Positions 2,540 to 57,228 of a stretch of DNA of 64,000 nucleotides are shown piece by piece. How positions within the stretch are numbered: position 1 is the stretch's first letter; each line of letters starts with the position of its first letter. The DNA lies in IMG/VR virus record IMGVR_UViG_3300025875_000590, positions 1 through 64,000 of that record. One strand, written 5' to 3'. A program made the translations under genes and the position numbers. This stretch comes from a virus. Lineage: Duplodnaviria; Caudoviricetes. The notes below the pieces were generated by a model that saw only the letters and a list, made by a program, of their open reading frames with translations, made no database searches and was not told where the DNA came from.

Positions 2540-2553
2540 GCTCCTCAGCTGGT
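2540..2553 (-). promoter_or_regulatory. Start-associated motif ACCAGCTGAGGAGC
   Basis: Exact copy 7 nt before start 2532. Confidence 0.85.
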
Positions 2554-2590
2554 GGGTGGTGCGGGGACGAACGCCTGCTGGCGTCCTCGG

Positions 2591-2623
2591 CCCCGGCCGG
2601 GCGGGGACACGGCCCGGCCGGGG
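2591..2623 (-). terminator. Intergenic hairpin, putative terminator
   Basis: 12-bp perfect stem CCCCGGCCGGGC/GCCCGGCCGGGG. Confidence 0.4.
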
Positions 2624-2632
2624 GCGACGACG

Positions 2633-2815
2633 TCAGAGCGGCGCGAGCCCAGAGGCGACGGTGCGCCCGCTCGAGGTGATGAGCACCCGCCCGGGGTGGA
2701 CGTCATGGAGGACGGGATGCGCCCAGGCTTCCTCGTCGTCGTAGGCGTCCCAGACGGTGACCTGGGTGTCGGCTGGCAGGGCCAGCAGCTTCGCGGCCAG
2801 CTCGGCAGCGGTCAT
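2633..2815 (-). CDS. Hypothetical protein (60 aa)
   Basis: Start-associated motif upstream. Confidence 0.7.
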   Translation of the reverse strand: MTAAELAAKLLALPADTQVTVWDAYDDEEAWAHPVLHDVHPGRVLITSSGRTVASGLAPL

Positions 2816-2823
2816 GCGGATCA

Positions 2824-2837
2824 GCTCCTCAGCTGGT
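2824..2837 (-). promoter_or_regulatory. Start-associated motif
   Basis: Exact copy before start 2815. Confidence 0.85.
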
Positions 2838-3007
2838 GTGTGCAGGACGACCCTACCGCGCCGAGCGCGGCGGCGTCCATGCCGAGTGGACGATTTCTCG
2901 GCGTGGTCCAGGCATAGGGAGGGGCCCCGGCGCGACCAGCTGAGGAGGTTGGCACGCGGGGGCCCCGACCACGATGGTAGGGGCCCCCGCGCCTGGGGGG
3001 AAGCTGG

Positions 3008-3427
3008 TCACCCGTTGGTGGGGCAGTACACGGCGACCGCGGCGGCGAGCAGCTCGCGGGCCTCGTCATCGGTGAGCCCGAGGTCGACCATGAGGGCGTC
3101 GCGCAGGCCCTCGGCGGGGACGCCGACGTCCAGGCCGGAGCAGACGCGGTGGCCGCGGTCGATGAGGGCGGCGGCCTGGGCGGGCGGCAGGTCGGTGTCG
3201 GCGCCGAGCAGGGCGGTCAGGAACTCGTCGTCGGCGGGGTCGACCAGCACGAGCACGTCGGCGGGGGCGATGGGCTGGACGGCGGGGATCGCGTCGATGC
3301 GGCGCGGCTCGAGCACAGCGGGAGCGGCGGCGGTGATGCCGGTGCCCGGGTCGGGGAGGGCGGCGACCCCGCCGCCGGTGAGGGCGAGGACGGTGAACAG
3401 GACGACGGTGCGCAGGGTGCGGGACAT
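3008..3427 (-). CDS. DUF732-like secreted protein
   Basis: Signal peptide; DDEFL..L...GHRVC..L...LT..EA......VYCP pattern. Confidence 0.7.
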   Translation of the reverse strand: MSRTLRTVVLFTVLALTGGGVAALPDPGTGITAAAPAVLEPRRIDAIPAVQPIAPADVLVLVDPADDEFLTALLGADTDLPPAQAAALIDRGHRVCSGLDVGVPAEGLRDALMVDLGLTDDEARELLAAAVAVYCPTNG

Positions 3428-3434
3428 GGCGGCA

Positions 3435-3448
3435 GCTCCTCAGCTGGT
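3435..3448 (-). promoter_or_regulatory. Start-associated motif
   Basis: Exact copy before start 3427. Confidence 0.85.
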
Positions 3449-3499
3449 TGGTGGTGCGGTGGTGGTGCTATCGGCAGGTGCCGGGTGGAGCGTGACCGG

Positions 3500-3733
3500 T
3501 CAGGCGGTGAAGCGGCGGCAGTCGCAGAGCTGCCCGTCGGTGACGCGGTGGCAGCCGTAGCGGTCGTGGTGGCCACGGTCGTGACCGCAGCGCCCGCAGG
3601 CGCCCTCGGCGACCGCCTGGAACACGGCGGCGACGAGGTCGAGCTGGCCGGGGACGCCGTCGACCGTCGAGGGAGGCTCGGGCAGCAGGAACGGGAGCGC
3701 GAGCTGGGCGGGGGCGACGGCGGTGGCGGGCAT
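3500..3733 (-). CDS. Small Cys/His protein, likely leaderless
   Basis: CGRCGHDRGHH...GC...CDC; ATG 7 nt after TAGCGT -10 box. Confidence 0.65.
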   Translation of the reverse strand: MPATAVAPAQLALPFLLPEPPSTVDGVPGQLDLVAAVFQAVAEGACGRCGHDRGHHDRYGCHRVTDGQLCDCRRFTA

Positions 3734-3763
3734 GAGGGAGACGCTAGACCTAGACACCGCCGG

Positions 3764-3779
3764 TGTCCAGTCCTAGACG
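3764..3779. promoter_or_regulatory. Operator-like palindrome overlapping -35 (TGGACA-17-TAGCGT on minus strand)
   Basis: TGTCCAGTCCTAGACG. Confidence 0.7.
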
Positions 3780-4146
3780 CGCCGCGCCGGGAAGTTCCTC
3801 GAGGGGTGCGTCCGGGGGGGCAGGTCGTGCAGTGATGACAGCCGCCGGGCGCGAGGACAAGTGGCCCCGGCCGACGCTCACACGCCTTACCTCCACCCGA
3901 GCCGGATGCGGCCCAAGGACAGCTGGGGCGGTCGGCTTGACCCCCCGGACGCTGTGCCGCCGACGCTACGGGCCAGCAGCAGCGGAGCGTGACAGGTAGC
4001 GCACGGCGCGTCGCCGGTTCGAGACGGCCGGCATCATTCGAGAATCATGCCGTCAGGAGAGAGCCCTGCCGCACAGAACAGGCAACACTTGCCTAGCGAC
4101 AAACCGCTGACCAGGCAGGATTACCTACCACCTGACATAATCTAGT

Positions 4147-4530
4147 TTATCGGCGGACACCTCGCAGCCATTCGGCCGCTCGTTCGAGGCGCTCGGGATT
4201 GTCACCGAACCCGCCCAGCCCGACGTTGCAGCCCTGGCACAGCAGCGCCCGCACCCGGCCGTCGTCGTGACAGTGGTCGACCACCAGCACCGGAGCAGCC
4301 GCCGACGGGCTCCCGTCCTTGCGCGGTCGGCCGCCGCGCGAAACGACCGGCAGCTCGTCCTCGTGCCGACGGCAGATGGCGCAGCGGTAGTCCTGAGCGA
4401 TACGCAGCCGGTCGTAGTCGGCTGGCGTGATCTTGTACATGCGCCAGAGGTTGTTCCGGCGAGTTCCTGGTCGCTCGTGGACACGACGCTCAGGCAGGGT
4501 CTGCTCGGTCCAGCGGGGCCGAGGCGTCAT
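4147..4530 (-). CDS. Endonuclease VII family protein
   Basis: YKITPADY...QDYRCAIC...VDHCHDDGRVRALLCQGCNVGLG. Confidence 0.85.
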   Translation of the reverse strand: MTPRPRWTEQTLPERRVHERPGTRRNNLWRMYKITPADYDRLRIAQDYRCAICRRHEDELPVVSRGGRPRKDGSPSAAAPVLVVDHCHDDGRVRALLCQGCNVGLGGFGDNPERLERAAEWLRGVRR

Positions 4531-5593: not shown

Positions 5594-5607
5594 CGGTGGG
5601 CTCCTGG

Positions 5608-6290: not shown

Positions 6291-7106
6291 TCAGTCGGCG
6301 GCGGGCAGGGCCCGCGTGCCGTCGGGGGTGAGCAGGCCGGAGGCCATTGCCTCGGCCACGAGGTCGGCGGCGTGCTCGGAGGGCCGGACCTGCAGCGTGG
6401 CTCGACCGAGGGTCAGCTCGACGCCGGCGGGGATGAGGACCTCGTGGGTGAGCGGGTCGACCCAGCCCTGGTCCTTCTTGCAGGAGGCGAGGACCGCGGT
6501 GATGAAGCTGTTGCGGACGACGGGCTTGTGGTCGATCTCGTCGGGGGCGTGCTCGAGCACCCAGGCGGTGAACTTCTCCTGGTCGGTGACCTTCCAGGAG
6601 CGGGACGGGCGGGACAGCCCGACCTTCCCGAGCAGCCGGTCCTCCTCGCCGCGGCGGGCGGCAGCGGCGTCCTCGGGGGTGAGGTAGGCGGAGCGGGAGT
6701 CGCCGACGTCGAGCTGGCCGTGGACGTCGGCGCGGGTGTCGGCGTCGGCCTCCTCGATGCGGGCGGTGAGGACCTTCAGCACGAGCAGCCGCACGAGCAG
6801 GTCGTCCAGTGCGGGACCGGCCGGGATGGGCTCCGGCTTGGGCTCGGCGGCGGGGACGGGCTCGGCGGTGCCGGCGGAGTCGACGGCGATCGCGCCGCCG
6901 AGGTGCAGCTCCTTCATGACGTCGGAGGTCGAGCCGTCGGCCAGGACGACGACGTCCGGGCTGGCGGTCAGGGCGGCGGAGAGCCGGGCGGCGTGGGTGC
7001 GGGCGGGCCGGCCCTTGGGGGTGAGGCAGGTGGCGCCGGGGTCGGAGCCGCAGGACGGGCAGTCGACGGTGAGGCCCGGCGCGGTAGCGGGCGCGGTGGT
7101 GGTCAT
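6291..7106 (-). CDS. Zn-finger protein adjacent to RecT
   Basis: ATG 7106 after start-associated motif; CPSCGSDPGATC...H..R N-terminus. Confidence 0.65.
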   Translation of the reverse strand: MTTTAPATAPGLTVDCPSCGSDPGATCLTPKGRPARTHAARLSAALTASPDVVVLADGSTSDVMKELHLGGAIAVDSAGTAEPVPAAEPKPEPIPAGPALDDLLVRLLVLKVLTARIEEADADTRADVHGQLDVGDSRSAYLTPEDAAAARRGEEDRLLGKVGLSRPSRSWKVTDQEKFTAWVLEHAPDEIDHKPVVRNSFITAVLASCKKDQGWVDPLTHEVLIPAGVELTLGRATLQVRPSEHAADLVAEAMASGLLTPDGTRALPAAD

Positions 7107-7115: not shown

Positions 7116-7129
7116 GCTCCTCAGCTGGT
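7116..7129 (-). promoter_or_regulatory. Start-associated motif
   Basis: Exact copy before start 7106. Confidence 0.85.
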
Positions 7130-10412: not shown

Positions 10413-11141
10413 TCATCGGAGACCGCGGGCGGTGAGCTGGGCGCGGGCGCGCTCGAGGGCGGCGGCCAGCGCGGTGAGGGACAGGTCGCCGGCGTTGACG
10501 ACGTCGGCGAGCAGGTCCCACCCGGCGCTGGCCTTCCGGCCGTCGAGGCGGAGGTAGGCGGCGACGTCGTCGGTGTGCTGCTCGAGGCCGTCGGTGATGG
10601 CGATGACCGCGGCGTCGACGGCGTCTGGGGTCCAGGTGGCGCCGACGTAGGGCAGCAGGGCGGCGCGCATGACGTCGCCGAGCGGGTCGAGGACCTCGGC
10701 GTCGACCACGTCGTCGTCGGCGATGACGTAGGTCCAGCCCTGGCATCCGCAGTCCCCGCGCAGGCAGCGACCGAGGCCGGTGGGCGCGGTGTCGAGGGCT
10801 TGGTGGACTCCGGCTTCGTGGCCACAATCCTCGGTGGAGCAGGGCAGCCTGTCGGTGTCTTCGACGCCGAATACGCGGCCGTTGCTGGTGCCGGTCTCGT
10901 CGGGCAGGTGTAGGCCGTGGCAGCCGGGGTCGGCGCAGTAGAAGCCGATGATCGTTCGGGCGGCGAGTGGGCGGGGTCGCCAGCCGGGGCACTTGCAGTG
11001 GCCGACGCCGACGAGGGAGCAGGTCCCGTCGCCGCGGTGCAGGCCGGCTCCGTGGGGGCAGCAGTCGCCGGGGGCGGCGAGCGCGTCGGTGGCGGCCTGG
11101 GTCTCGGACGGCGTGCGGCGCGGGAGGTGGGGGGAGGACAC
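10413..11141 (-). CDS. Cys/His-rich hypothetical protein
   Basis: Several C..(G)H....H...C..C.C modules; start-associated motif upstream. Confidence 0.7.
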   Translation of the reverse strand: MSSPHLPRRTPSETQAATDALAAPGDCCPHGAGLHRGDGTCSLVGVGHCKCPGWRPRPLAARTIIGFYCADPGCHGLHLPDETGTSNGRVFGVEDTDRLPCSTEDCGHEAGVHQALDTAPTGLGRCLRGDCGCQGWTYVIADDDVVDAEVLDPLGDVMRAALLPYVGATWTPDAVDAAVIAITDGLEQHTDDVAAYLRLDGRKASAGWDLLADVVNAGDLSLTALAAALERARAQLTARGLR

Positions 11142-11146: not shown

Positions 11147-11160
11147 GCTCCTCAGCTGGT
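11147..11160 (-). promoter_or_regulatory. Start-associated motif
   Basis: Exact copy before start 11141. Confidence 0.85.
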
Positions 11161-14416: not shown

Positions 14417-15552
14417 GGGGTGCCCCCGACGGTGAGCGCCACCTGATCGCGCTTGCCGGCGTCGCCGACGGTGACGTCCTCCCCGAGCACGCGGGTGACG
14501 TGCAGGACCGGGGTCGGCCACTCCTCGAGCGACTCGTCGGTGATCTCCAGGCCGACGTCGTCACCAGGGATCACGCCGGCGTCGAGGTACCGCTCGGGCT
14601 CGACGGTGACCCCGGAGAACACGTACTCCGACGCCTGGCCGGCGCGGAGGGCGACCTTCGCGCGGGCCTCGAGCAGCGGCTCGTCGTCGGTGTCGGAGGC
14701 GGAGATGGTGCCGATCCAGGACGGCCAGCCGGAGTCCAGCTCGAACACGCCGGCGGCTTCGTCCTCCACGGCGACCCACGGCTGGGCCTCCCCCGACCCG
14801 GCGCCGAGGGCGATGACGACGTTGTCGGTGCCCGACCCGTCCTCCTCCAGGTCCCAGGTGAGCAGGCCCCCGTCGGGGTAGGCGAACTCCAGCTGCGTGT
14901 CGGCGTAGCGGCGGCCGAGCCGGTCCCCGTCATCGAGGACCAGGGCGGTGGCGAACCGGCCGTCGACGTCGCGGTAGCAGTCGACGCGCACCTCGAGGGT
15001 GCGGGCCTCCAGCTCGGTGAGGCCGAGGATCAGCTCGAGGATGGGCTTGACCTCCCGGGCGAGCCACTCGCGGTCCTCATCGATGCCGGCGCCGCCGATG
15101 ACGGGCATGACGCGCCCGTTGGGGGTGCCGCCGCGCTGCCGGCCGATGCGCTGCAGCAGGAGCTCGGCGGCGTCGTGGGGGCTGCGGTTGCCGGGGATGA
15201 GGTCATCGAGCAGCCGCTGCCGGTGCAGCCACCCCTCCCAGGTGACGGCGGAGAAGGTCAGGCCGGGGGACCCCGACGACCGCTTGCGGCGGGAGACGGG
15301 CCCGCCCCACCGGCAGGTGGTCCGGCCGTCGGGGTGCTCGTACTCCACCCAGGCGGCGGTGCGCCGGGGCCGGGTCGCCGACCACGGGTTGAGCGCGCGC
15401 ACCTCGGGATCCGACAGCGACAGGTAGGCGTCGAGGGTGCCGACGCCGTTGACCTGCCGGCCGAACTTGACCCCGGTGAGCGGCAGCGTGGCCAGCTCGG
15501 CGCCGGTGAGCATGTCGGTGAGCGTGTAGGTCCAGGGGGACTCCCCGTTCAC
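14413..15552 (-). CDS. Minor tail protein (baseplate hub-like)
   Basis: Position after Dit-like gene; LPLTGVKF...GTL...WGGPV pattern. Confidence 0.7.
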   Translation of the reverse strand: MNGESPWTYTLTDMLTGAELATLPLTGVKFGRQVNGVGTLDAYLSLSDPEVRALNPWSATRPRRTAAWVEYEHPDGRTTCRWGGPVSRRKRSSGSPGLTFSAVTWEGWLHRQRLLDDLIPGNRSPHDAAELLLQRIGRQRGGTPNGRVMPVIGGAGIDEDREWLAREVKPILELILGLTELEARTLEVRVDCYRDVDGRFATALVLDDGDRLGRRYADTQLEFAYPDGGLLTWDLEEDGSGTDNVVIALGAGSGEAQPWVAVEDEAAGVFELDSGWPSWIGTISASDTDDEPLLEARAKVALRAGQASEYVFSGVTVEPERYLDAGVIPGDDVGLEITDESLEEWPTPVLHVTRVLGEDVTVGDAGKRDQVALTVGGTP

Positions 15553-18200: not shown

Positions 18201-19145
18201 TCACTTCCAGCGGGGACGGAACTCGATGCGGGCACGGGCCGCGGGGTTGTAGGCGCCGGCCTCGAAGCGCAGGTCGTTGACGCCCTTGGCGAGCGCCCAG
18301 AAGCGCGAGCGAGGGGCCTTCGACCGGTAGGAGGACACGCCGTTGATGCGCACGGTGCGCAGGTCCATGTCGATGACGGCCTGCTCGCCCTGCCGCAGGT
18401 CGCGGGCCAGGGTGAACGCCTGACCGGTGGTGACGTTGCTGATGGTCGGGGAGGGGACCGGGCCGTCGATGAGGACGCGAGGGGCGATCGGCAGCTTCCC
18501 GATGTTGTCCACGGCGGCTCGACCGCCGAGGGTGGGTGCGACACCACCGTGGTCCAGGGGATGGGTCATCGGGTGGGTGGCGCCGCGGACGGTGCTGGGA
18601 TCGCGGAGCACCATCGGCACCGACTCCAAGCCGGCGATGCCGGCGGCGTACTTGAACGGGTCAGCGGCGGTGACCACGAAGCTGAAGGTGCGTGCGCGGG
18701 TCTGCCCGGGCACGGGGTCGATCGACACCTCGCTCGAGGGCCGGACGGTGAGCTGCTTCGGGATGCGCTCGGTGACCGACAGCAGCGTGTCCACCGAGGG
18801 GTGCAGGCAGTCCTGCAGCCGCTCCGCGGTCTCCTCGAGGGCGTCAATGCCGCCGGAGCAGACGCGGAACGCGCCGCTGATCTCCACGACACGAGGCCGG
18901 TAGGCGCCGCGCCCGAACCACGCCCCGTCGGTGGGCTTGTCCTCCAGCCCGAGCTCCACGGGCGGAGACCGGTACCAGCCGGCGGGGTCGCGGATGATCC
19001 ACTCGACGCCGTAGCCGTCGCGGCCGTTGAACGACAGGTCCGGGGCGTCGAAGGCGCCGAGGGACCAGGTGCGCGACGAGGTGGGCACGAACGGCCCGGC
19101 CACCGGCTGCCCGGGGCGCTCGGGGAGGACGAGGGGGGCGGTCAT
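18201..19145 (-). CDS. Distal tail (Dit)-like protein
   Basis: Directly after tape measure; GWYRSP...DGAW...PRVVEISG...AADPFKY. Confidence 0.75.
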   Translation of the reverse strand: MTAPLVLPERPGQPVAGPFVPTSSRTWSLGAFDAPDLSFNGRDGYGVEWIIRDPAGWYRSPPVELGLEDKPTDGAWFGRGAYRPRVVEISGAFRVCSGGIDALEETAERLQDCLHPSVDTLLSVTERIPKQLTVRPSSEVSIDPVPGQTRARTFSFVVTAADPFKYAAGIAGLESVPMVLRDPSTVRGATHPMTHPLDHGGVAPTLGGRAAVDNIGKLPIAPRVLIDGPVPSPTISNVTTGQAFTLARDLRQGEQAVIDMDLRTVRINGVSSYRSKAPRSRFWALAKGVNDLRFEAGAYNPAARARIEFRPRWK

Positions 19146-26919: not shown

Positions 26920-26978
26920 GGGTGCTCGGGAGCGAGCGCCCGGCCCTCGGCCAGCGGCGGTACAACTTCGGAGGGTAG
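26920..26978 (-). promoter_or_regulatory. Conserved late promoter/5' leader, copy 1
   Basis: 35-nt core 26932-26966 identical to 31820-31854. Confidence 0.75.
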
Positions 26979-31805: not shown

Positions 31806-31865
31806 GGGTGCTCGGAAGTGCGAGCGCCCGGCCCTCGGCCAGCGGCGGTACAACCCGGAGGGTAG
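31806..31865 (-). promoter_or_regulatory. Conserved late promoter/5' leader, copy 2
   Basis: Same 35-nt core as upstream of major tail gene. Confidence 0.75.
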
Positions 31866-33823: not shown

Positions 33824-34086
33824 GCCGCAGCCACGGGCGAGGGCCAGACGACGCGCTCAGACCGCTCGATGACGACCGTGCTGGCCGCGGGGATCTCCGC
33901 GACCCGCTCCATCGGCCCGCTCATGTGGTCGTACCCCCCGACAGCAGGGGCCCCGGCGCGGAGCAGCGCGGCCCGCTTCTCCGCGGCCTTCTTCGACTGG
34001 TAGTGCCAGGCCCGGGTCTCGGTGGGCCGCCCCGGAGACGTCCAGGTGGCGGTGACGCGGAACAGGTACTTCGGCCGGTACCTCAC
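33820..34086 (-). CDS. Hypothetical protein
   Basis: GTG 34086 overlaps upstream stop. Confidence 0.55.
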   Translation of the reverse strand: MRYRPKYLFRVTATWTSPGRPTETRAWHYQSKKAAEKRAALLRAGAPAVGGYDHMSGPMERVAEIPAASTVVIERSERVVWPSPVAAA

Positions 34087-34568
34087 GGCTTCGGGACCTC
34101 GACCACGAGGTCGGCCAGGTCCGGCCAGGCGTTGACGCCGAGGGAGCCGGGCAGGTGGAGGACGACGGCGATCGGCGTCCAGCGGCGGATGACGAACAGG
34201 CCCTGCTCGGGCCACCGCTCGTCGGGGCGCACCTCGACGTCGGCTGACTCGTAGCTGACCTGCAGGCCACCGCGGTAGGTGGAGGCGGGGACGCGCTGGT
34301 CGTCGTAGACCTCGCCGAGCACCTCGAGGACGTTGCTGTGCGGGCGGCCGGAGCCGGGCAGCTCCAGCTCCTTGATCGTGTCCCAGGTGGAGATGACGCC
34401 GACGGGGTCGGCGCCGTAGTCGCCGAGGTCGGGCCGGATGCCGGCGTGCAGGGCGGTGAGGGGGATGGCCCGCTCGGGGAGCACGAGGCCCTCGCCGACG
34501 AGCAGGCGCCCGTCGGTGGTGGGCACGTCGGTGCGGCCGATGGGCCCGGAGATGGACAGGACTGACAC
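34083..34568 (-). CDS. Hypothetical protein
   Basis: Start-associated motif upstream; PTTDGR...AIPL. Confidence 0.6.
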   Translation of the reverse strand: MSVLSISGPIGRTDVPTTDGRLLVGEGLVLPERAIPLTALHAGIRPDLGDYGADPVGVISTWDTIKELELPGSGRPHSNVLEVLGEVYDDQRVPASTYRGGLQVSYESADVEVRPDERWPEQGLFVIRRWTPIAVVLHLPGSLGVNAWPDLADLVVEVPKP

Positions 34569-34575: not shown

Positions 34576-34589
34576 GCTCCTCAGCTGGT
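34576..34589 (-). promoter_or_regulatory. Start-associated motif
   Basis: Exact copy before start 34568. Confidence 0.85.
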
Positions 34590-34623: not shown

Positions 34624-35091
34624 TTAGCCCTGTTCGGTGGGGCGCGCTAGAGGGAACAGCCGCTCCGGGGGCGCCTCGACCGGGAGCGCGGCCAGCCGGG
34701 GCGAGTGCCCCCGTTCCTCGTTGCAGCCGTGGAACGGGCCGTTCGAGTCCAGCAGGACGGGCATGTGGACGTCGGCGTGGTCGCGGAACCACACGCTCAT
34801 GCCCAGCGCCGGCTCCAGGCGCAGGTGCTCCCACGACCGCCACAGCGCCTCCAGTCGCGCGATGGCCTCAGCGTGCTTCCACCACATCGGGCACCAGATG
34901 AGGGTGCCCAGCGGCCGGCGGTACATGGGCGCGAGCTGATCGGCGACGAACTCGGGCAGCGAGGGGTAGAAGGTCTGCGGCGGCGCCTCGGGCGGTGGGG
35001 GCGGGGCGGCCGGGCGGGGCTTGACGCTGGCGGCGACGTCGTCCATCCACGCGTCGTCCGGGGCGCCCCAGGCGTCGGGGAGCGCGGTCAC
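34624..35091 (-). CDS. DUF4913-like conjugation-associated protein
   Basis: WCPMWWKHAEAIARLEALWRSWEHLR...WFRDHAD.HM..L...GPF.GC. Confidence 0.75.
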   Translation of the reverse strand: MTALPDAWGAPDDAWMDDVAASVKPRPAAPPPPPEAPPQTFYPSLPEFVADQLAPMYRRPLGTLIWCPMWWKHAEAIARLEALWRSWEHLRLEPALGMSVWFRDHADVHMPVLLDSNGPFHGCNEERGHSPRLAALPVEAPPERLFPLARPTEQG

Positions 35092-36860
35092 GCCGCGGCC
35101 CACACGTCGTCGGGGACGTCGGCGTCGGCGAGGGTGACCGCGGCGGCCGGGTCGTGCGCGGCGATCGACGCCCGGACGGCGTCCTGGTGCGGGCCGGCCA
35201 TCCAGGGCACCAGGCGCAGCAGCACGGGCCGGACGCCGGTGGTGAACAGCACCGCCCGGCCCTTCGGGATCGCGCCGAGGTCGGCGACGTCGAGGACCCG
35301 CTCGCGGTGCTCGGACCACGAGCGCGAGCGGGAGTCCTTGCCGGTGGAGCCGGAGCGGGTGACGTCGCGGAAGGTGCCGGTGAACTTCGACAGGCCCTCG
35401 AGGAACTCGTCCTCGGAGACGCCGGCGCCGACGACGCGCAGGTTGGCCGCCGACCACAGCTTCCGCATGCCCTCCCGGCCCCACACGTCCACGCCCTGGG
35501 ACCAGGACTGCAGGAACGTGATGACCGGCATGCCGCGGGAGCCGAGGTGGCTGTAGAGGTCGGGCAGCTGGTGCCACCTGCAGATGTTCGCGGCCTCGTC
35601 CAGGCAGAGCAGCAGCGGCACGCGCAGCCGCCCACCGGGGCAGGTCTTGGCCTCGGCCTCGGCTGCCTCGGTGACGGCGACGGTGAGCGCGGTGACCAGC
35701 GGCCCCGCCGAGGCGTCACCTTCCTTGGACAGCAGGTACAGCGTGTCGGTGGAGACGACGAACGCCGTCGGGTCGAACTGCGGCCGGGCCCCGGTCGGGT
35801 CAGTGATCCACCGCTCGGTGCGGGAGCTGATAAGGAAGCTCATCAGCTCCTGGGCGGTGCCGTAGATGCCGCCGCGCTGCTTGGGCTCCATGCGGATGAC
35901 CGCCTGCACGGCCTTCGCCGAGCGCACGAAGCCGGCGGCCTTCAGCAGCCGGGCGGGCTCGTCGTCCAGGGAGTCGGTGAGCCAGTCATAGACCTGGGTG
36001 ATCGGCCGCGGGTCCGGCTGGCCGGTCTCGGGGTCGACGCCGCGGGCGGCGGCCAGGCACAGGTTCCCGATGAGCGAGGGCCCGGCCTTGTCGAAGTAGG
36101 CGTCGGTGCGGGCGCCGGGGTCGCGGGCGGCGGAGACCAGCGTGCGGGCGAGCTTCAACCCGGACACCTCGTCGTGCACGGCGCCGAGCGGGTTCCACCA
36201 CCAGGTGGGCTCCTCGTCCGCGAGGCCCATGGGGTCGAACACCCAGATGCGGCCGGTGCGGGCACGCAGGTCGCGGGTGGCGTCGGTGGAGTCCCGCTTG
36301 TTGCTGGTGGCCAGCACGGGGCAGCCGGGGACGGAGAGGATGGCGGTGATCGCGGCCGAGGTGGTCTTGCCGCCGCGGGGGCCGATGATCCACACGGCGA
36401 CGGCCTCGAAGTCCTGCCACAGCGGCTGCCCGCCGGCGACGGCCCGCCCGACAGGGAAGCCGGGCACATCGATGCCCAGCCGCCGCGCGGTCCGGGTAGC
36501 CCCGGCGGTGGAGAGGTCGGTGAGGTCCTTCCCGCGGCCGAGGTGCCCGGCGGCCCGGTCGATGGTCTTACGCCCCCGCCGGGCACGGCGGGCGAGCAAC
36601 CCGACGAGCACGGCGAGGACGACGACCGGCAGCGTCAGCAGCGCGAGGGCAAGCCACCCGCGCTCGGGCCACGCCGCCTCCCCCGAGCGCAGCTGCAGCG
36701 CGAGGACGAGCGGATGCCAGGGCAGGCGGACACCGTCCCCGTCAAGGACGGCACCGAGGTGCGCGGTGCCGGTGAACACCCCGGCCACGCCGGCGACGCC
36801 GAGCAGCGCGGCCAGCCCGAGCAGCCCCTCACCGCGGGTCTGCCGGTCGGTGGCGCTCAC
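35088..36860 (-). CDS. virD4: Type IV coupling protein (VirD4/TraG-like)
   Basis: N-terminal TMs, GPRGGKTT, ATSNKRD, LDEAANIC, FLQSWSQG. Confidence 0.9.
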   Translation of the reverse strand: MSATDRQTRGEGLLGLAALLGVAGVAGVFTGTAHLGAVLDGDGVRLPWHPLVLALQLRSGEAAWPERGWLALALLTLPVVVLAVLVGLLARRARRGRKTIDRAAGHLGRGKDLTDLSTAGATRTARRLGIDVPGFPVGRAVAGGQPLWQDFEAVAVWIIGPRGGKTTSAAITAILSVPGCPVLATSNKRDSTDATRDLRARTGRIWVFDPMGLADEEPTWWWNPLGAVHDEVSGLKLARTLVSAARDPGARTDAYFDKAGPSLIGNLCLAAARGVDPETGQPDPRPITQVYDWLTDSLDDEPARLLKAAGFVRSAKAVQAVIRMEPKQRGGIYGTAQELMSFLISSRTERWITDPTGARPQFDPTAFVVSTDTLYLLSKEGDASAGPLVTALTVAVTEAAEAEAKTCPGGRLRVPLLLCLDEAANICRWHQLPDLYSHLGSRGMPVITFLQSWSQGVDVWGREGMRKLWSAANLRVVGAGVSEDEFLEGLSKFTGTFRDVTRSGSTGKDSRSRSWSEHRERVLDVADLGAIPKGRAVLFTTGVRPVLLRLVPWMAGPHQDAVRASIAAHDPAAAVTLADADVPDDVWAAA

Positions 36861-45509: not shown

Positions 45510-47045
45510 TCATCGCTCCACCCCGCGGTCGCGGGACGTCGTCGTGCGCGCTCGAGCACGCTCCAGATCGGCAGGCAGCACCGCCCCCGGTGCCGGGCGT
45601 GAACTGCTGGGCGCCGAAGTCACGCCAGACGGCGCGGGCGTGAACTGCGGCGTGGGGAGGGTGGCGGCGATGGTGACGAGCTCCCCGCGGGCCATCCGCG
45701 CGATCTCCTCCGCCCGCCGCGCCTCCCCCACCGCCCCGTGCCAGTCGTGCAACGCCCGCGTCGTGTTGGACAGCTGCCGCAGCAGCACCGCCTGCGCCAC
45801 CGTCCCCTGCCCCCCGTGCGCGATCGAGGCGAGCAGCAGCGCCGCCCCCCGCGCCGACGGGCCCCGCCGAGCCCCCTTCGCCTCGTGCGCCCGGATCTGC
45901 GCCGACCGGGCCAGGGAATCCGCGGCGTGCGCGAGCGGCCCCGGCACGTCGCCCTCCACGGCCACCGACCAGGCGGCGAACGCGCCGGCGGTCTCCCCCG
46001 CCACCCGAGCCCACGTCGCCCGGTCGGTGACCGGCACCGACCGCAGCCACGCCTGCAGCTGCCCGATCTCGACCGCCGCCGCCTCCCACAGCTCCGGCCC
46101 GGGGGTGACCAGCTCCGGCCCGGAGCGCACCGGTGCCCGGCCGCGTTTCGCCGCGGTCCACTCCTCGACGGCCTCCCCCACCGCCTCGACCGACCGGTCC
46201 CACCCGGCGGCCTCCCGCAGCCGAGGCAGCGTGAGGTCCTTCGCCAGGTGCCCGCCGCCGTAGAAGATGCCGTCCCCGCCCGGTGCCGGCCGGGCGACGG
46301 AGTGCCCGCCGACGACGTCGTCCCGGTCCGCGGCGAACCGGGCGTCGACGCGCAGCCCCGCCCGGCGGAGCCGGCGCACGAACTCCGCCTCGCTCGAGGC
46401 CGCCGCTGCAGCCGCCCGCACGGTGCGCGCCAGCCGCACGGTCTCCGGCTCCCGCCCGGCCGCCGCCGCCCGCTCGAGCACCGGCCGGGACACCCCGCGG
46501 TCCCCGCGGCCAGCGCCTCGGGCCTCCAGGCGCACCAGCCCGTACTTCGCCTCCAGCTCCCGGGCGAGGGCCTGAGCGCGCGGCCGGTCCCGCCACACGT
46601 TGGCCTTGGTGCCGTCCTCCCGCACGAGGGAGGTGACGAAGTGGATGTGGTCGTTGCCGCCCTTGCTCGGGCCGTGGTGCACGGCGACCCACCGGCAGGG
46701 GGCCTTCCCGTCGGCGCCGGAGAACCCCATGCCGTCGGCGATGTCCTGCGCGATCGCCGCCCACTTCTCATCCGGCAGCCGGCCCTCGTCGGCGGCCAGC
46801 GCCCAGGAGGCGTGCCACACGTGCCCGTCGGGGACGTCGACGTGGAACGCCCGCCGCGGCCCGCCGAGGTCCCGCCCGATCGCCAGCGCTTGCTCGTGGG
46901 ACAGGACGGCGGTGTCGTACCAGGCCATGATCGCCGGATCGCCGGCGACCAGGTGCGGGTCGACGTGCTGGTTGTCCCGCCCGGGCCCGACCAGGTAGGC
47001 CATGAGCCCACCGAGCCGGTTCCCGCGGGTGATGTTCGGCATCAC
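45510..47045 (-). CDS. MOBP-type relaxase
   Basis: MPNITRG..LGGLMAYLVGPG (catalytic Tyr), VWHASWAL, VAVHHG...NDHIHFV. Confidence 0.85.
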   Translation of the reverse strand: MMPNITRGNRLGGLMAYLVGPGRDNQHVDPHLVAGDPAIMAWYDTAVLSHEQALAIGRDLGGPRRAFHVDVPDGHVWHASWALAADEGRLPDEKWAAIAQDIADGMGFSGADGKAPCRWVAVHHGPSKGGNDHIHFVTSLVREDGTKANVWRDRPRAQALARELEAKYGLVRLEARGAGRGDRGVSRPVLERAAAAGREPETVRLARTVRAAAAAASSEAEFVRRLRRAGLRVDARFAADRDDVVGGHSVARPAPGGDGIFYGGGHLAKDLTLPRLREAAGWDRSVEAVGEAVEEWTAAKRGRAPVRSGPELVTPGPELWEAAAVEIGQLQAWLRSVPVTDRATWARVAGETAGAFAAWSVAVEGDVPGPLAHAADSLARSAQIRAHEAKGARRGPSARGAALLLASIAHGGQGTVAQAVLLRQLSNTTRALHDWHGAVGEARRAEEIARMARGELVTIAATLPTPQFTPAPSGVTSAPSSSRPAPGAVLPADLERARARTTTSRDRGVER

Positions 47046-48792: not shown

Positions 48793-48874
48793 GACGACCA
48801 GCTCCTCAGCCCAGCGCAGCGCCCCCAACGGGCACCCCACCCCGCCACGATCTCACGGCGGCCGGGGCACGCGC

Positions 48875-49410: not shown

Positions 49411-49590
49411 TCAGTTGCAGCCGAGGGCCGGGTCCTGGTCGGGGGCGTAGAGCGGGACGACGTGCTCGGTGAGGTCGTCGGCGTTGCGGATCTCGTAGCC
49501 GGGCATGCCGGGGCGGACGACGACGGCGGCGCCGCAGCAGCCGCAGGCCCAGACGTCGGCCGGGTCGGTGGGGAGGACGGCGCGCATCAC
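49411..49590 (-). CDS. Small hypothetical protein
   Basis: MRAVLPTDPADVWACGCCG..., not in ORF track. Confidence 0.55.
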   Translation of the reverse strand: MMRAVLPTDPADVWACGCCGAAVVVRPGMPGYEIRNADDLTEHVVPLYAPDQDPALGCN

Positions 49591-49745
49591 GAGCGGGTGA
49601 TGCCGCGGGAGCGCAGCTCGGCCTCGATGCGCCGGTTGTCGGCGAGGACGGCGGCCCGGAGGCGGGGCAGGCGGGGGATGAAGATCGACGGGGTGTAGGC
49701 GTCCATCAGGGCCCGGTCGGTCATGCGGGTGAGGTCGGTGCGCAC
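49587..49745 (-). CDS. Small hypothetical protein
   Basis: MRTDLTRMTDRALMDAY..., start-associated motif upstream. Confidence 0.6.
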   Translation of the reverse strand: MRTDLTRMTDRALMDAYTPSIFIPRLPRLRAAVLADNRRIEAELRSRGITRS

Positions 49746-49752: not shown

Positions 49753-49766
49753 GCTCCTCAGCTGGT
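49753..49766 (-). promoter_or_regulatory. Start-associated motif
   Basis: Exact copy before start 49745. Confidence 0.85.
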
Positions 49767-52801: not shown

Positions 52802-53127
52802 CAGGACTCCAGGGTGGTGGGGTGGTCGTCGGCGGGGTCGCTGGCGGGAACGGGGGCCGTGCGCTCGAGGTGGGCCTCGGCGCGGTCGGTGGCGGCGCGC
52901 AGGGCGTCGCCGAGCAGCTCGCCGAGGGGGTCGGCGCGGACGGCGGCGATCAGCGCGCGGAGGGCGTCGCGGTCGCCCTGGCCGCGGACGTCGGCCTGGC
53001 CGATGGCGTAGGCGAGGGACTCGAGCAGCAGCCGGCGGCGGATGAGCGAGGCCGGGTCGCCGGGCGGGGGGAAGCCGGCGGCGATGAGGGCCTTGCGGGC
53101 GGCCCGCCGGTGGTCGTCGGTGGTCAC
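52801..53127 (-). CDS. Hypothetical protein
   Basis: Overlaps both sides. Confidence 0.6.
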   Translation of the reverse strand: MTTDDHRRAARKALIAAGFPPPGDPASLIRRRLLLESLAYAIGQADVRGQGDRDALRALIAAVRADPLGELLGDALRAATDRAEAHLERTAPVPASDPADDHPTTLES

Positions 53128-53453
53128 TGGACGGCGTCGAGCTCGTCGGCCTGGCGGTCCCAGGCGGCGGCGGAGGCGAGCAGCAGGTCGTAGCGGGGGG
53201 TGCCGCGGTCGAGGCAGTCGGCCTCCTCACGGTCGATCTGGGCGGAGCGGCGGGCACCGTCGGCGTCGTCGCCGACGTAGGGGTCGCGGTGGTCGGCGTG
53301 GTCGGGGGCCAGCCGGACGGCGAGGTCGACGTCGAGCTGCCGCTGCTGCCGGATCTCGGCGAGGCGGTGGACGACGACGGGGTCGCTCTCGCCGCGGCGG
53401 CCAGCGGCGAGAGCGCGCCGGGCGAGGTCGTCGCGGTCAGGGAAGTCGGTCAT
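53124..53453 (-). CDS. Hypothetical protein
   Basis: Start-associated motif upstream. Confidence 0.65.
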   Translation of the reverse strand: MTDFPDRDDLARRALAAGRRGESDPVVVHRLAEIRQQRQLDVDLAVRLAPDHADHRDPYVGDDADGARRSAQIDREEADCLDRGTPRYDLLLASAAAWDRQADELDAVQ

Positions 53454-53462: not shown

Positions 53463-53476
53463 GCTCCTCAGCTGGT
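53463..53476 (-). promoter_or_regulatory. Start-associated motif
   Basis: Exact copy before start 53453. Confidence 0.85.
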
Positions 53477-54000: not shown

Positions 54001-54411
54001 TCAGTCGGTGGCACCGAGCAGCAGGTCGATGATGCGGCGGTTGGCGAGCAGCTTCTCCACGCCTGCCTTCCGCTCGGCGAGGGCTTCGACCAGGCGGCCG
54101 GTGGCGGACTCGACCAGCGAGCCGTCCTCCTGGTAGCCGCCAGCGAGGTTGGCGATGACGCGCCCGGCGTAGCCCTTGACCTCGGTGGCCCGCTCCCCGG
54201 CGGCGCGGTCGGCCTCGAGGACGGCCCAGGTGGCGGTGGTCTCCGCGGCCATGAGCATGAGCCCGAGCTTCCCGGCGTTGCGGAGCGCGACGCCCTGCTC
54301 GTCGGTGAGGGTGGCGAAGCTGGGCAGGATGCGGGTCAGGGACTCGGCGTCCCGCTGGGACAGCTCGAGCGCGCCGACGGTGTGGCGGGGGGCGTTCGCG
54401 GTGGTGGGCAC
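54001..54411 (-). CDS. Hypothetical protein
   Basis: Start-associated motif upstream. Confidence 0.65.
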   Translation of the reverse strand: MPTTANAPRHTVGALELSQRDAESLTRILPSFATLTDEQGVALRNAGKLGLMLMAAETTATWAVLEADRAAGERATEVKGYAGRVIANLAGGYQEDGSLVESATGRLVEALAERKAGVEKLLANRRIIDLLLGATD

Positions 54412-54418
54412 GGTAGGA

Positions 54419-54432
54419 GCTCCTCAGCTGGG
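54419..54432 (-). promoter_or_regulatory. Start-associated motif (1 mismatch)
   Basis: Before start 54411. Confidence 0.8.
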
Positions 54433-54504
54433 TGGGTGGGGCTGTCACCGCCGCGGGCCCCGCACCCGAGGTGGGTGCGGGGCCAGGCGGAGCAGGCGGG
54501 GCGG

Positions 54505-54753
54505 TCAGGCCAGGGCGAGGGTCTGACCCTTCTTCCCGTAGACGGTGCCGGTGGTGCGCTTCTCCCGGCCCTTGACGGTGACGGCGATCGTCCCGTTGAG
54601 GTAGGCCCGGGCCGGGGGGCGGCCGTAGGTGGTGGTGATCGTCCGGCCGTTGACGGTGGTGGCCTTGCCGGAGGCGAAGGCGGCGTTGATGCGCTCGGCG
54701 ATGTCCTCGTTGCCGCCGGCGGCGACGGTGATGGTGGTGGCGGTGCGGGCCAT
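54505..54753 (-). CDS. Small basic hypothetical protein
   Basis: Start-associated motif upstream. Confidence 0.7.
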   Translation of the reverse strand: MARTATTITVAAGGNEDIAERINAAFASGKATTVNGRTITTTYGRPPARAYLNGTIAVTVKGREKRTTGTVYGKKGQTLALA

Positions 54754-54757
54754 GTCA

Positions 54758-54771
54758 GCTCCTCAGCTGGT
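54758..54771 (-). promoter_or_regulatory. Start-associated motif
   Basis: Exact copy before start 54753. Confidence 0.85.
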
Positions 54772-54825
54772 GGGGTGCGGGGCCGGTCGGCCGCGCAGGA
54801 GTAGGAGACCATCCCTCGCACGCGT

Positions 54826-54841
54826 TGTCCAGTGCTAGACA
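54826..54841. promoter_or_regulatory. Operator-like palindrome
   Basis: TGTCCAGTGCTAGACA. Confidence 0.75.
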
Positions 54842-54860
54842 CGCGACGCGCGGGAGGGGG

Positions 54861-55004
54861 TCAGACGGTGGCGAGCTCGGCGGCGACGTCGTCGGCGCGG
54901 ACGTCGCCGTAGGTCTCGACGGCGTCGAGCAGGGCCTCGCGGTCGGCGACGGGGAGAGCGGCGAGCAGGGCCTCGATGCGGGCGAGAGCGGCGGTGGCGT
55001 CCAT
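54861..55004 (-). CDS. Small hypothetical protein (47 aa)
   Basis: MDATAALARIEALLAALP..., GC3-rich. Confidence 0.5.
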   Translation of the reverse strand: MDATAALARIEALLAALPVADREALLDAVETYGDVRADDVAAELATV

Positions 55005-55074
55005 GACCCTGTGTTCGGCTCGTGCAGACCGGAGCTGAAGGCCGGCGTTCGCGGCTCCCCCCTTCAGGGGGGGG

Positions 55075-56178
55075 TCAGGCGGCGATGGCCGCGGCGAGCC
55101 CGAGGTGCTCGAGGACCTCGTCGGGGGCGGCGTCGAGCAGCAGCCCGAGGACGGCGGCGGTGGCGTGCAGCGGGACGACGCCGTTGCCGAGCATCTTGAT
55201 CGCGTCCTCCCCGGATACGGCCCACCGATCGGCGGGGGCGTCGAACAGGTCGAGCTGGTCGACCACTGCCGGCACGCGGGTGACCCACCCGGCGGGCAGG
55301 CCCATCATCCACTCGGTGAAGGCGGGGTTCAGTCCTCGTCCGCCGCGGGCTCGTCGCTCCAGAGGCTGAGGGGCTCGTCGGCCGGTGATGTGCTCCCAGC
55401 GGGCGACGGCGTCGGCGTAGACGCCCCAGTCGACGTCAGCGCCCCCAGCAGGGTCGGGTTGCCCCGCGGGTAGGACAGCGAGGTCCGCTCGGCGTCCGAG
55501 CGCATCGGGGTAGGCAGCAGGTGCAGCGCCGTCGTCAGGTCGTGGCCGCCGGAGCCGGGCCGGGTCATCCGCGCGTAGTCCGGGCCGGAGTGGGCCAGCT
55601 TCGCCTCCGGGGTCGGCAGGAGCCGGCCAGGCGGTGATGAACACGCGGGCGCGGCCGTGGGGGGCGCCGACGGCGGAAGCGGGTACGAGACGCCACGCCG
55701 CATCGTACCCGAGGTCGGCCAGGTCGCCGAGAACAGCTCCGAGGGCCCGGAGGACGACGGAATCCGCCAGGTCCGGCTCGTCGGGTCCCAGATCGCGGTG
55801 GGCTCGGGCACTGAGCAGTCCTCTCACGTTCTCGATGACGACCAGCGCGGGGCGCAGCTGGGCGATGGCGTAGGCGAAGTGGGTCCAGAGACCGGAGCGG
55901 GAGTCGGGGTGGATGCCGAGCCGGCGCCCGGCGAGGGACACGTCCTGGCAGGGGAAGCCGCCGAGCAGGACGTCGACGGGCTCGACCTCGGACCAGTCGA
56001 TGCGGGCGACGTCGCCGAGGTTGGGGACGTCGGGGAAGCGGTGGGCGAGGACGCGGCAGGCGGCGGGCTCGACCTCGGCGTGCCAGGCGGTGCGGGCGCC
56101 GGGGATGGCCGCGGTGACGCCGAGGTCCAGGCCGCCGTAGCCGGAGAACAGCGACCCGACGGTGAGGGCAGGGGCCAC
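55075..56178 (-). CDS. DNA (cytosine-5) methyltransferase
   Basis: SLFSGYGG, GFPCQ, ENV, R.R.F, LGNGV motifs. Confidence 0.92.
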   Translation of the reverse strand: MAPALTVGSLFSGYGGLDLGVTAAIPGARTAWHAEVEPAACRVLAHRFPDVPNLGDVARIDWSEVEPVDVLLGGFPCQDVSLAGRRLGIHPDSRSGLWTHFAYAIAQLRPALVVIENVRGLLSARAHRDLGPDEPDLADSVVLRALGAVLGDLADLGYDAAWRLVPASAVGAPHGRARVFITAWPAPADPGGEAGPLRPGLRADDPARLRRPRPDDGAAPAAYPDALGRRADLAVLPAGQPDPAGGADVDWGVYADAVARWEHITGRRAPQPLERRARGGRGLNPAFTEWMMGLPAGWVTRVPAVVDQLDLFDAPADRWAVSGEDAIKMLGNGVVPLHATAAVLGLLLDAAPDEVLEHLGLAAAIAA

Positions 56179-56265
56179 GGTGGCGCTCCAGACGGGTGAG
56201 AGGGGCGGGGTCAGTGTCGGGGACGGCGACGCCCGCCCCGCGCAGGCGGGGCGGGCGTCGGCCGG

Positions 56266-56562
56266 TCAGGCGGAGCGGCGGGTGAGCTCGGCGCGGGCCC
56301 GGCGGCGGGTGACCGGGGAGGCGAGCGCGGCCTCGAGGTCGGCGGTGGTCATGGAGGCGGCGACGGCGTCCAGGACGTCGCTCTCCAGGTCGATCTCGCG
56401 GAGCCCGAACCGGGCGGCGATGCGGGTGGCGGTGGCCGCGGCCTCGGCGCGGTCGGCGATGGAGTGGGCCATGTGGGAGGCGACGGCGGCGTCGATGTAC
56501 GCCTGCCGACCGGCCGCCGCGCCCAGCTGCGGGCGCGGCGACCACACGAAGTCGGCGGTCAT
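56266..56562 (-). CDS. Hypothetical protein
   Basis: ATG 56562 overlaps upstream stop. Confidence 0.6.
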   Translation of the reverse strand: MTADFVWSPRPQLGAAAGRQAYIDAAVASHMAHSIADRAEAAATATRIAARFGLREIDLESDVLDAVAASMTTADLEAALASPVTRRRARAELTRRSA

Positions 56563-57206
56563 CGGGTCACCGGCAGCACGCCGACGGTGTTGGCGATCGC
56601 GGCGAGGACGACGGACTGCGGGGTGGAGCCGCCGAACTCGACGCGCCACCACTCCAGCTTCGCCAGGGGCCGGTCGGGGTCCCAGCCGATGAGGGTGACG
56701 CGATCGCCGTCGTCGGTGTAGCCGATGACGCGGAAGGCGCCGGACTCGTGCTCGGTGCGCCACCAGGGGCCGGACAGGTAGTGGTCGCCGGTGGTCATCT
56801 CGCCGAAGCCGAGCCCGGCGAGGGCGGCGCCGAACTCGCCCGGGTTGGAGCGCAGCGTGCCGAGGGCGGCGTCGGCGACCGTGCGGGCCAGCGCGGCGTC
56901 GCGGTCGGGCTGGCCGCAGACCTCGCACGCGCCGTCGACCATCTCGTGGCCGAACATCGAGCAGCGCATGACGTCGTCGTCCTCGTCGGGCACGGGGACG
57001 GTGATGGCCTCGCGGGGGGCCTCGGCGGCGGCCACGGCCCGGGGGGTGGGGACGTGGGAGCAGCGGGCGCAGTCGACGGTGATGTGGGGGACGCGGCCGA
57101 CCCAACCGGCGGTGAAGTCGATGGGGCGCCCGCACGCGGTGCGGCCGTCGGGGCGGACGGTGTGGGTGCGCCCGCGGGCGGCGGTGGCGACGGTGATGGC
57201 GGTCAT
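56559..57206 (-). CDS. Hypothetical protein with Cys motifs
   Basis: ATG 57206 after start-associated motif. Confidence 0.65.
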   Translation of the reverse strand: MTAITVATAARGRTHTVRPDGRTACGRPIDFTAGWVGRVPHITVDCARCSHVPTPRAVAAAEAPREAITVPVPDEDDDVMRCSMFGHEMVDGACEVCGQPDRDAALARTVADAALGTLRSNPGEFGAALAGLGFGEMTTGDHYLSGPWWRTEHESGAFRVIGYTDDGDRVTLIGWDPDRPLAKLEWWRVEFGGSTPQSVVLAAIANTVGVLPVTR

Positions 57207-57214
57207 GGTGAGCA

Positions 57215-57228
57215 GCTCCTCAGCTGGT
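57215..57228 (-). promoter_or_regulatory. Start-associated motif
   Basis: Exact copy before start 57206. Confidence 0.85.

Follow-up and report, generated by a model that had tools for sequence, protein, structure and literature searches.

What does a 14-nt sequence do that recurs, always in the same orientation, a few nucleotides before the starts of small genes dispersed along a phage-like genome? The question is raised by the first 64 kb of IMGVR_UViG_3300025875_000590 (positions 1 to 64,000, hereafter the window), the record of an uncultivated virus genome of 87,200 nt with a G+C content of 75%. The repeated sequence, hereafter the box (ACCAGCTGAGGAGC), contains a Shine-Dalgarno (SD) core preceded by a 5′ extension, and the record carries one further copy in the reverse orientation. 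Our tentative answer, to which we assign a probability of roughly 0.4, is that the box is a regulon tag acting at the level of mRNA, with an antisense loop predicted at the reversed copy as its candidate reader.

Copies and placement of the box

The window contains 10 exact copies of the box and one copy with a single mismatch, all on the minus strand, and each of these 11 copies lies 4–9 nt 5′ of a minus-strand ATG or GTG. This agrees with an earlier note made on the same DNA, which had listed the exact copies between 2540 and 57215 and the one-mismatch copy at 54419, all a few nucleotides before minus-strand starts. The variant that it had added at 48801 proved weak, with 10/14 bases (GCTGAGGAGC) in common with the box. 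Three more exact copies lie beyond the window (64098, 65739 and 86585), so that the 87,200 nt hold 13 exact and one one-mismatch forward copies, all in the sense of the gene that follows. At up to two mismatches, 15 matches were found in the window against 0.92 expected by shuffling (100 shuffles, largest count 4), and the box is the commonest 12-mer of the record. The spacer from box to ATG or GTG is 4–9 nt for 13 of the 14 copies, and these starts open reading frames (ORFs) with high G+C content at third codon positions (GC3). The copies in the window and the features associated with them are as follows; G001 and G007 are two relatives described below, and the anti-motif is the reversed copy.

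2540–2553, minus strand: box, 7 nt before the GTG of gene 2269–2532 (87 aa, signal- or transmembrane-like N-terminus), whose orthologs G001_18676 and G007_27088 are both also box-bearing
2824–2837, minus strand: box, 8 nt before the ATG of gene 2633–2815 (60 aa), preceded by a −10-like TAGGGT and with the anti-motif ~95 nt upstream
2916–2972, minus strand: predicted GC-rich hairpin of the anti-motif, directly past the stop codon of gene 3008–3427
2935–2948, plus strand: reversed copy of the box (anti-motif), ACCAGCTGAGGAGG on the plus strand
3435–3448, minus strand: box, 7 nt before the ATG of gene 3008–3427 (139 aa, DUF732)
7116–7129, minus strand: box, 9 nt before the ATG of gene 6291–7106 (271 aa, phage zinc-finger domain)
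11147–11160, minus strand: box, 5 nt before the GTG of gene 10413–11141 (242 aa, no family match)
34576–34589, minus strand: box, 7 nt before the GTG of gene 34083–34568 (161 aa), directly past a terminator-like hairpin that closes the conjugation block
48801–48814, minus strand: weak variant CTGGGCTGAGGAGC, 8 nt before a GTG; membership doubtful
49753–49766, minus strand: box, 7 nt before the GTG of gene 49587–49745 (52 aa)
53463–53476, minus strand: box, 9 nt before the ATG of gene 53124–53453 (109 aa)
54419–54432, minus strand: one-mismatch box CCCAGCTGAGGAGC, 7 nt before the GTG of gene 54001–54411 (136 aa)
54758–54771, minus strand: box, 4 nt before the ATG of gene 54505–54753 (82 aa)
54826–54840, minus strand: operator- or promoter-like inverted repeat GTCTAGCACTGGACA upstream of the 54758 box, an analogue of the extended start-associated sequence (ESAS) of cluster K mycobacteriophages
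57215–57228, minus strand: box, 8 nt before the ATG of gene 56559–57206 (215 aa)
57269–57283, minus strand: operator- or promoter-like inverted repeat GTCTAGTGCTGGACA upstream of the 57215 box, likewise an ESAS analogue

The 5′ edge of the box is sharp, with information content at background one base upstream, while the two bases that follow it are mostly T and G (12/14 and 11/14 copies), giving a full box ACCAGCTGAGGAGCTG. The 40 nt upstream of the copies are C/A-rich but unconserved (C, 47% vs 41% for the strand), with CACC or CCAC runs before most copies, and the CCAC-rich lead-in described in the earlier note thus holds qualitatively. The one copy outside the 4–9 nt spacing (64098–64111) has no ATG or GTG inside 12 nt. 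The ORF behind it (63775–64122) may start from a CTG 9 nt past the SD; alternatively, a leaderless ORF could begin at the GTG at 64122 and read the box as codons, which is disfavoured because of the A/T third positions that this would place across the box.

Gene calling based on GC3 gave ~135 genes; the minus strand encodes nearly all of them, and most are translationally coupled, with overlaps of 4 or 1 nt. The box-bearing genes are those that follow an intergenic gap, and translationally coupled genes lack the box. As had been claimed for virion and transfer (tra) genes, no copy is present in the parts of the record encoding tail, capsid and lysin (12–33 kb), coupling protein and relaxase (35–48 kb) or terminase, portal and MuF (66–83 kb); virion, lysis, packaging and conjugation genes have varied, ordinary GGAG sites instead (e.g. 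GAAGGAGC or CCAGGAGCC). Products of the box genes are small and mostly ORFans in family searches, the exceptions being a DUF732 protein, a phage zinc-finger protein and weak matches to WhiB-like proteins and endonucleases. ATG starts are enriched behind the box (19/28, vs 90/354 for other genes, whose start calls are approximate).

Family searches also located the large terminase, portal region and MuF-like protein (67–78 kb), the major head protein (30049–31791), a type IV coupling protein (35088–36860) and a relaxase (45510–47045), together with a major tail protein, a tape-measure protein, an amidase/LysM lysin, a ParA-like protein and RecT. Judged by these matches, the element is a siphovirus-like genome plus a conjugation and partition module. 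Genes for ParA-like, type IV coupling, VirB4-like, SCO6880-like, relaxase and MobC proteins are found alongside those for terminase, portal, MuF, capsid, tail and lysin (window 11321–48925; record 64–78 kb). No close relative was found in the phage and plasmid collections searched.

Conservation and anatomy of the box

Two relatives carry the same box. IMGVR_UViG_3300025875_000621 (G001; 94.6 kb) was found via its capsid protein (58% identical) and IMGVR_UViG_3300025875_000618 (G007; 50.2 kb, incomplete) via a 17-mer scan. Each has nine copies of (N)CCAGCTGAGGAGC before start codons, sense to their own gene even where genes are divergently transcribed, and the spacer is again 4–9 nt in all 17 start-linked copies of the two genomes. 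The element has 57 proteins in common with G001 (mean identity 52%, conjugation block included) and 20 with G007, identity with both relatives being ~52–54%. Eleven of 13 box genes of the element are without a BLASTP homolog in either relative, and orthologous box-gene pairs mostly retain the box. Over 32 copies in the three genomes 13 nt are identical, whereas the common proteins are merely 52–65% identical. Since the 13-mer is identical before unrelated genes despite a protein identity of ~52%, it must be under direct selection. The conjugation block of G001 is inverted relative to the phage genes when compared with the element, and the two together are a candidate conjugative phage-plasmid lineage.

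The earlier note had named equal abundance of the motif at the starts of host genes as a refutation. Hosts were sampled as 401 actinomycete genomes over the class of a Microbispora genome that bears a related capsid gene, and the 13-mer has at most two copies in any of them (the element's own host has not been identified); it is thus not equally common at gene starts in these 401 genomes, for which a host-wide signal is ruled out. The total of 76 matches in 65 genomes is below the reversed control, and the one match in an unpublished genome of the set (G026) does not affect the conclusion. Scans of viral contigs with the 14-mer, the 17-mer, a 15-mer of the anti-motif and the operator of G001 type found multiple copies only in G001 and G007, the remaining matches being single chance copies. 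Besides G001, a scan of metagenome contigs for two boxes returned just two unrelated contigs of 46% GC (Ga0247607_1002332 and Ga0063135_1051590); in both, the 13-mer recurs every ~320–360 nt within a tandem coding-like repeat that is unrelated to phage and is a chance source of multi-copy matches. More distant relatives recovered via the major capsid protein or terminase have no SD-containing repeat, and the box sequence was not found in the published literature searched.

Within the box, the GAGGAG core pairs with the 3′ tail of 16S ribosomal RNA (16S; tail sequence taken from general knowledge), while ACCAGCU and C14 are invariant although they are unpaired with this tail. The base after GAGGAG is C, a mismatch to 16S at a position where G would pair better. 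GCUGG of 16S sits 5′ of the anti-SD, within helix 45, and collinear pairing of ACCAGCU to the 16S 3′ end was ruled out by inspection. The box is predicted to be foldable as a 5-bp mini-hairpin, CAGCU-GAGG-AGCUG (−7.1 kcal/mol), with a mean predicted pair probability of ~0.5 in 64-nt contexts. The predicted probability of being unpaired in context is 0.32 for A12 and 0.17 for G13, and with these SD bases mostly paired the ribosome site is less than maximally open. Of the 32 forward copies, 29 have A at position 4 and three have G; where it is A, position 15 is U in 24 copies, C in three and A in two, and all three copies with G4 carry C15, which retains the 4:15 pair. This pattern is consistent with RNA pairing, on two independent events. 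CAGCTG was observed 72 times in these genomes against 27 expected, and avoidance of it as a restriction site was ruled out, there being no depletion.

A second repeat, GTCTAG-N3-CTGGACA, has eight minus-strand copies in the record (window 3764, 8522, 49341, 49978, 53892, 54826 and 57269; record 64151) and looks like an operator-like repeat placed over a −35 element. In several copies a TAGCGT-like −10 follows after 17–19 nt, then 7 nt, then ATG, an arrangement that suggests repressor-controlled leaderless early genes. The copies at 64151, 57269 and 54826 precede leaders that contain a box (64098, 57215 and 54758, respectively). In the relatives, a different inverted repeat (GTACAC-N5-GTGTAC) lies upstream of 6/9 box copies in G001 and 7/9 in G007, at a distance to the box that varies from 4 to 27 nt where the repeat is present at all. 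Many box copies lack a nearby promoter-like element and are preceded simply by the upstream gene's stop codon. The box as a leaderless promoter is ruled out by its variable 4–9 nt spacing and the canonical SD inside it, and a scan of 2200–3900 for consensus promoters and terminators found nothing, as expected at 75% GC.

We place the function of the box in the mRNA because of its fixed distance to the start codon, its gene-following orientation, its embedded SD and its variable distance to promoters. Of the two levels of shared control proposed in the earlier note, the translational one, widened to the mRNA, is thus the best fit, and the DNA-level one is weaker.

Three other upstream arrangements were seen. 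At 15439–15500 of G007 two boxes stand back to back across a single GTACAC...GTGTAC, one for each of two divergent genes, as in a switch region of repressor/cro type. A longer lead-in, CTGCCGATAGCACCA...CACCA, precedes the box at window position 3435, at 18658 in G001 and at 27409 in G007; the genes behind it differ among the three elements, a pattern suggestive of a conserved module upstream that is distinct from the operator repeats. Finally, identical structured leaders of 35 nt (26932–26966 and 31820–31854, minus strand) are found after TACCCT and before the genes for the major tail and major capsid proteins; ribosome sites in these late leaders are ordinary, and the anti-motif is missing from them.

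The reversed copy and candidate readers

The copy at 2935–2948, absent from the earlier note's list of copies, is the sole box in reverse orientation in the record. Its sense-RNA (minus-strand) form is CCUCCUCAGCUGGU, complementary to the box, and this anti-motif (CAACCUCCUCAGCUGG) has 12–13 bp of complementarity to every box; in its sense-RNA reading CAACCUCCUCAGCUGGU the 16S anti-SD heptamer ACCUCCU is joined to the complement of the tag. The match is exact at 13/13 bases (composition-based expectation ~0.002). A counterpart is present at 88386–88398 of G001, at the orthologous place in conserved synteny; 16 loop nt are identical in the two genomes and the surrounding intergenic region is 78% identical, with non-homologous genes on its flanks. 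In G001 the anti-motif is predicted to occupy an 18-nt loop on a 19-bp stem (−52 kcal/mol, z −3.65), and in the element the loop of a smaller hairpin adjoining a 17-bp GC hairpin. In the consensus fold of the two, ACCUCCUCAGC stays unpaired, and compensatory changes are seen at four of the 18 pairs. The predicted duplex of anti-motif and box (~−30 kcal/mol) compares with −10 to −19 kcal/mol for the 16S tail on the box and −9 to −16 kcal/mol for the anti-motif on the element's ordinary SDs. If transcription read through, the minimum-energy fold of the RNA from the element would pair the anti-motif with the next box (2824) over 13 bp, and in the corresponding RNA of G001 the anti-motif is predicted to stay in its hairpin loop. 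No part of the record matched a known RNA family in Rfam.

Taken together, the box would be a start-associated sequence of mRNA, composed of the SD core GAGGAG, the 5′ extension ACCAGCU and a usual 3′ UG, and would serve as the standard translation start of those accessory and early genes that are neither coupled nor leaderless. The mini-hairpin would half-bury the ribosome-binding site (RBS), and the 5′ extension would act as an address, limiting a sequence-specific reader to these messages; the box genes would then form one post-transcriptional regulon. Such a reader is called for because bases needed neither for 16S pairing nor for the hairpin are invariant, and the antisense loop is favoured since it is the sole candidate visible in the sequence. 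The reversed copy, with CAACCUCCUCAGCUGG in a hairpin loop, may mimic the 16S anti-SD plus the tag complement and would form a 12–13-bp duplex over the RBS of the box, with the next gene as its target in cis and perhaps all box genes in trans, shutting off their translation.

Several points weigh against this reading. Hairpin formation in RNA, transcription and pairing of the reversed copy, and repression are steps that we infer. The mini-hairpin is predicted to dominate in only about half of the contexts, and the 4:15 covariation comes from three copies, two of them orthologous, with five copies breaking the pair. An antisense 13-mer at up to one mismatch arises in 17–20% of shuffles, so that only the exact match and its orthologous conservation carry weight, and with the region 78% identical the 16-nt identical run is only moderately surprising. 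The reversed copy can be checked in two genomes, G007 being incomplete and without that region. The anti-motif is absent from the late-operon leaders of the element, and a hairpin with an 18-nt loop and a GC stem of 19 bp might be nothing more than a terminator. Among cluster K mycobacteriophages, whose start-associated sequence (SAS) is compared with the box below, Pixie and Unicorn have no sense-strand complement of the SAS (anti-SAS) and the reversed copy of ZoeJ is the SAS of a leftward gene; since these three are without a true anti-SAS, an antisense reader is not universal for the SAS.

The reader might instead be a protein of phage or host, either an RNA-binding translational regulator (RegA-like) or a site-specific endoribonuclease (RegB-like), that recognises the mini-hairpin with its GAGG loop and turns the regulon on or off, in which case the reversed copy would be a decoy, a cis element of one gene or irrelevant. 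The evidence from placement and conservation applies equally to such a protein, which could also account for what neither the hairpin nor 16S pairing explains (C2, the identity of G5:C14 and an invariant C14 that is not G); in addition, the SD is predicted to lie within a small structured context, and cluster K subclusters without the anti-SAS retain the SAS. We nevertheless consider a protein reader somewhat unlikely, as it leaves the conserved reversed copy unexplained and no RNA-binding or ribonuclease family was seen among the proteins common to the three elements (families found: MobC, DUF1353, endonuclease VII, methylase and small-terminase-like), a weak argument given that many of these proteins are unannotated. 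That there is no reader at all, the box being a portable translation-initiation cassette with an SD, a stop for upstream frames and an unstructured CA-rich lead-in, kept identical by descent and cassette copying, also seems unlikely. The canonical SD at canonical spacing, a TGA stop in one frame (two when TGA follows the box), the C/A-rich upstream flanks, the enrichment of ATG starts and the ORFan cassettes behind the box would all fit. However, to keep 13 nt identical in 32 copies across three genomes, every base must be under selection; the mismatch of the invariant C14 to the 16S tail, the partial burial predicted for the SD and the varied GGAG sites with which other uncoupled genes manage also speak against this reading.

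Placing the function in DNA would make the box an orientation-specific protein-binding site that overlaps the RBS, stoperator-like or a roadblock operator, with CAGCTG or the CAGCT-N4-AGCTG symmetry as recognition element. The box does contain this palindrome and the 5-4-5 inverted repeat, a dimeric DNA binder would predict the 4:15 covariation just as well, and at most G001 and G007 copies the box lies 4–12 nt downstream of operator-like repeats. Such a site is quite improbable, given that spacing is fixed to the start codon and not to promoter elements, which many copies lack, that a separate and sequence-unrelated operator repeat (GTCTAG-N3-CTGGACA) is already present, that the box is asymmetric, with a right arm (U15, G16) less conserved than the left, and that CAGCTG is not unusual in these genomes. 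The recombination anchor also proposed in the earlier note, i.e. microhomology at gene starts for RecT-type cassette swaps, is very improbable. The element encodes RecT, box genes are mostly non-orthologous between relatives, and a first pass placed ends of homology blocks ≤25 nt from the box in 6/10 cases (G001 vs G007), but mini-alignments of the box itself had produced this signal. When homology blocks were required to span ≥100 nt, box starts were no nearer to breakpoints than other starts (25–29% vs 12–34% within 40 nt). Moreover, 13 nt is very short for efficient recombination, and selection for evolvability alone would not fix every base or the distance to the start.

Comparison with start-associated sequences and other phage systems

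RegB and RegA of phage T4 are proteins that act on loosely defined sites, RegB cutting GGAG in early ribosome sites. The control proposed here would resemble theirs in that early genes are shut off together via their SD regions (GGAG); no homolog of either protein was found in the element. The c4 antisense RNA of the P1/P7 immI operon pairs with downstream ribosome-binding regions and blocks translation. The predicted hairpin of the reversed copy would be like c4 in being a structured phage RNA that is located upstream, is read in the same direction and has a loop complementary to the ribosome-binding region, the predicted fold exposing ACCUCCUCAGC(UGG) opposite the RBS of its targets. In contrast, c4, which is freed by RNase P processing, acts through two short loop matches on a single operon (icd-ant), while here one loop would serve 14 dispersed sites. 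The immunity repressor binds stoperators as DNA sites; these are related to its operator, are not linked to start codons and contain no SD. The box shares with those of cluster A (L5 gp71; PMC3203893) the occurrence of many 13-bp asymmetric sites in one orientation within short intergenic spaces. Unlike them, it has an SD at fixed spacing from the start and is unrelated to the operator repeat of the element, and it is thus not an operator-related, start-independent site of this kind.

The closest parallel is the SAS of cluster K, a 13-bp box (GGGATAGGAGCCC) present in 11–19 copies, 3–7 bp before ATG-enriched starts of non-structural genes, which is asymmetric with symmetric outer bases and is not found in hosts; an ESAS inverted repeat stands upstream of half the copies, and K1 phages have one SAS that points the opposite way and has no link to a gene (PMC3203893). 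The ESAS has been equated with SigA-like promoters bearing an inverted repeat (PMC11373665), and the role of the SAS is still called unknown (PMC11373665, PMC12699233). The analogy with cluster K drawn in the earlier note survives a feature-by-feature comparison of copies, orientation, spacing, SD core, gene class, rarity and upstream repeats. Both boxes are 13–14 nt long and asymmetric, occur 9–19 times per genome in sense orientation only, 3–9 nt before starts, contain AGGAGC with conservation past the 16S pairing and have self-complementary outer bases. Both precede non-structural genes of diverse families with enriched ATG starts, are rare in host-type genomes (for the box, the 401 actinomycete genomes sampled) and have a subset of copies behind an inverted repeat plus promoter-like element, and in both systems a single reversed copy that is not linked to a gene start lies in a conserved, predicted hairpin loop (K1 phages for the SAS).

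The sequences themselves have only AGGAGC in common (ACCAGCTGAGGAGC vs GGGATAGGAGCCC), and the box does not match the SAS consensus at up to two mismatches, so it is not a member of that family by sequence. The predicted stem has 5 bp in the box and 3 in the SAS, the box is carried by a phage of 75% GC that has a conjugation module and the SAS by mycobacteriophages, and the upstream repeats (GTCTAG-N3-CTGGACA in the element, GTACAC-N5-GTGTAC in its relatives) are unlike the ESAS. The likeness to SAS and ESAS is best described as an analogy of form, each listed feature except the sequence having a counterpart here, with rarity in hosts judged on the sampled genomes.

In Anaya the reversed SAS lies in the 385-nt gap between gp96 and gp97, in a region conserved in 135 cluster K phages. 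The anti-SAS (CCUCCUAUC) occupies the apical loop of a predicted two-tier hairpin with 16 pairs, one of them compensatory (seven aligned phages), and in Adephagia this hairpin lies in the gap between genes 92 and 93, where the start of late transcription has been placed (PMC11373665). The K1 gap (Anaya JF704106, 59799–59959; Adephagia NC_051610, 58551–58832) contains a promoter-like TTGGCG...TAGACT, a covarying hairpin (GCGCUCC/GGAGUGU vs GCGCCCC/GGGGUGU) and a second hairpin with the anti-SAS loop, and has no annotated feature in most records. SirPhilip has lost the anti-SAS, and the match in Kratio is intragenic and doubtful. The K1 parallel is thus real but not universal. In K1 phages an anti-SAS loop in the leader of the late transcript would stop translation of early genes at the onset of late transcription. 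That a single phage hairpin RNA competes successfully with the ribosome and thereby silences 14 dispersed accessory genes as one regulon, and that the K1 SAS is to be explained likewise, is a possible but doubtful extension of the reading preferred here.

K1 phages are tractable in Mycobacterium smegmatis, which makes the antisense hypothesis directly testable. If true, it would define a new type of phage regulon with an addressable ribosome-binding site, and would provide a compact means of controlling the translation of several genes together in high-GC actinobacteria. Since 2011, SAS copies have been recorded for hundreds of mycobacteriophages, still with no mechanism to explain them, and the element described here is an independent, sequence-unrelated case of the same type in a different kind of mobile element. 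The same anatomy, promoter-like inverted repeats included, built on an unrelated sequence argues that the SAS is a convergent solution and not a quirk of one lineage.

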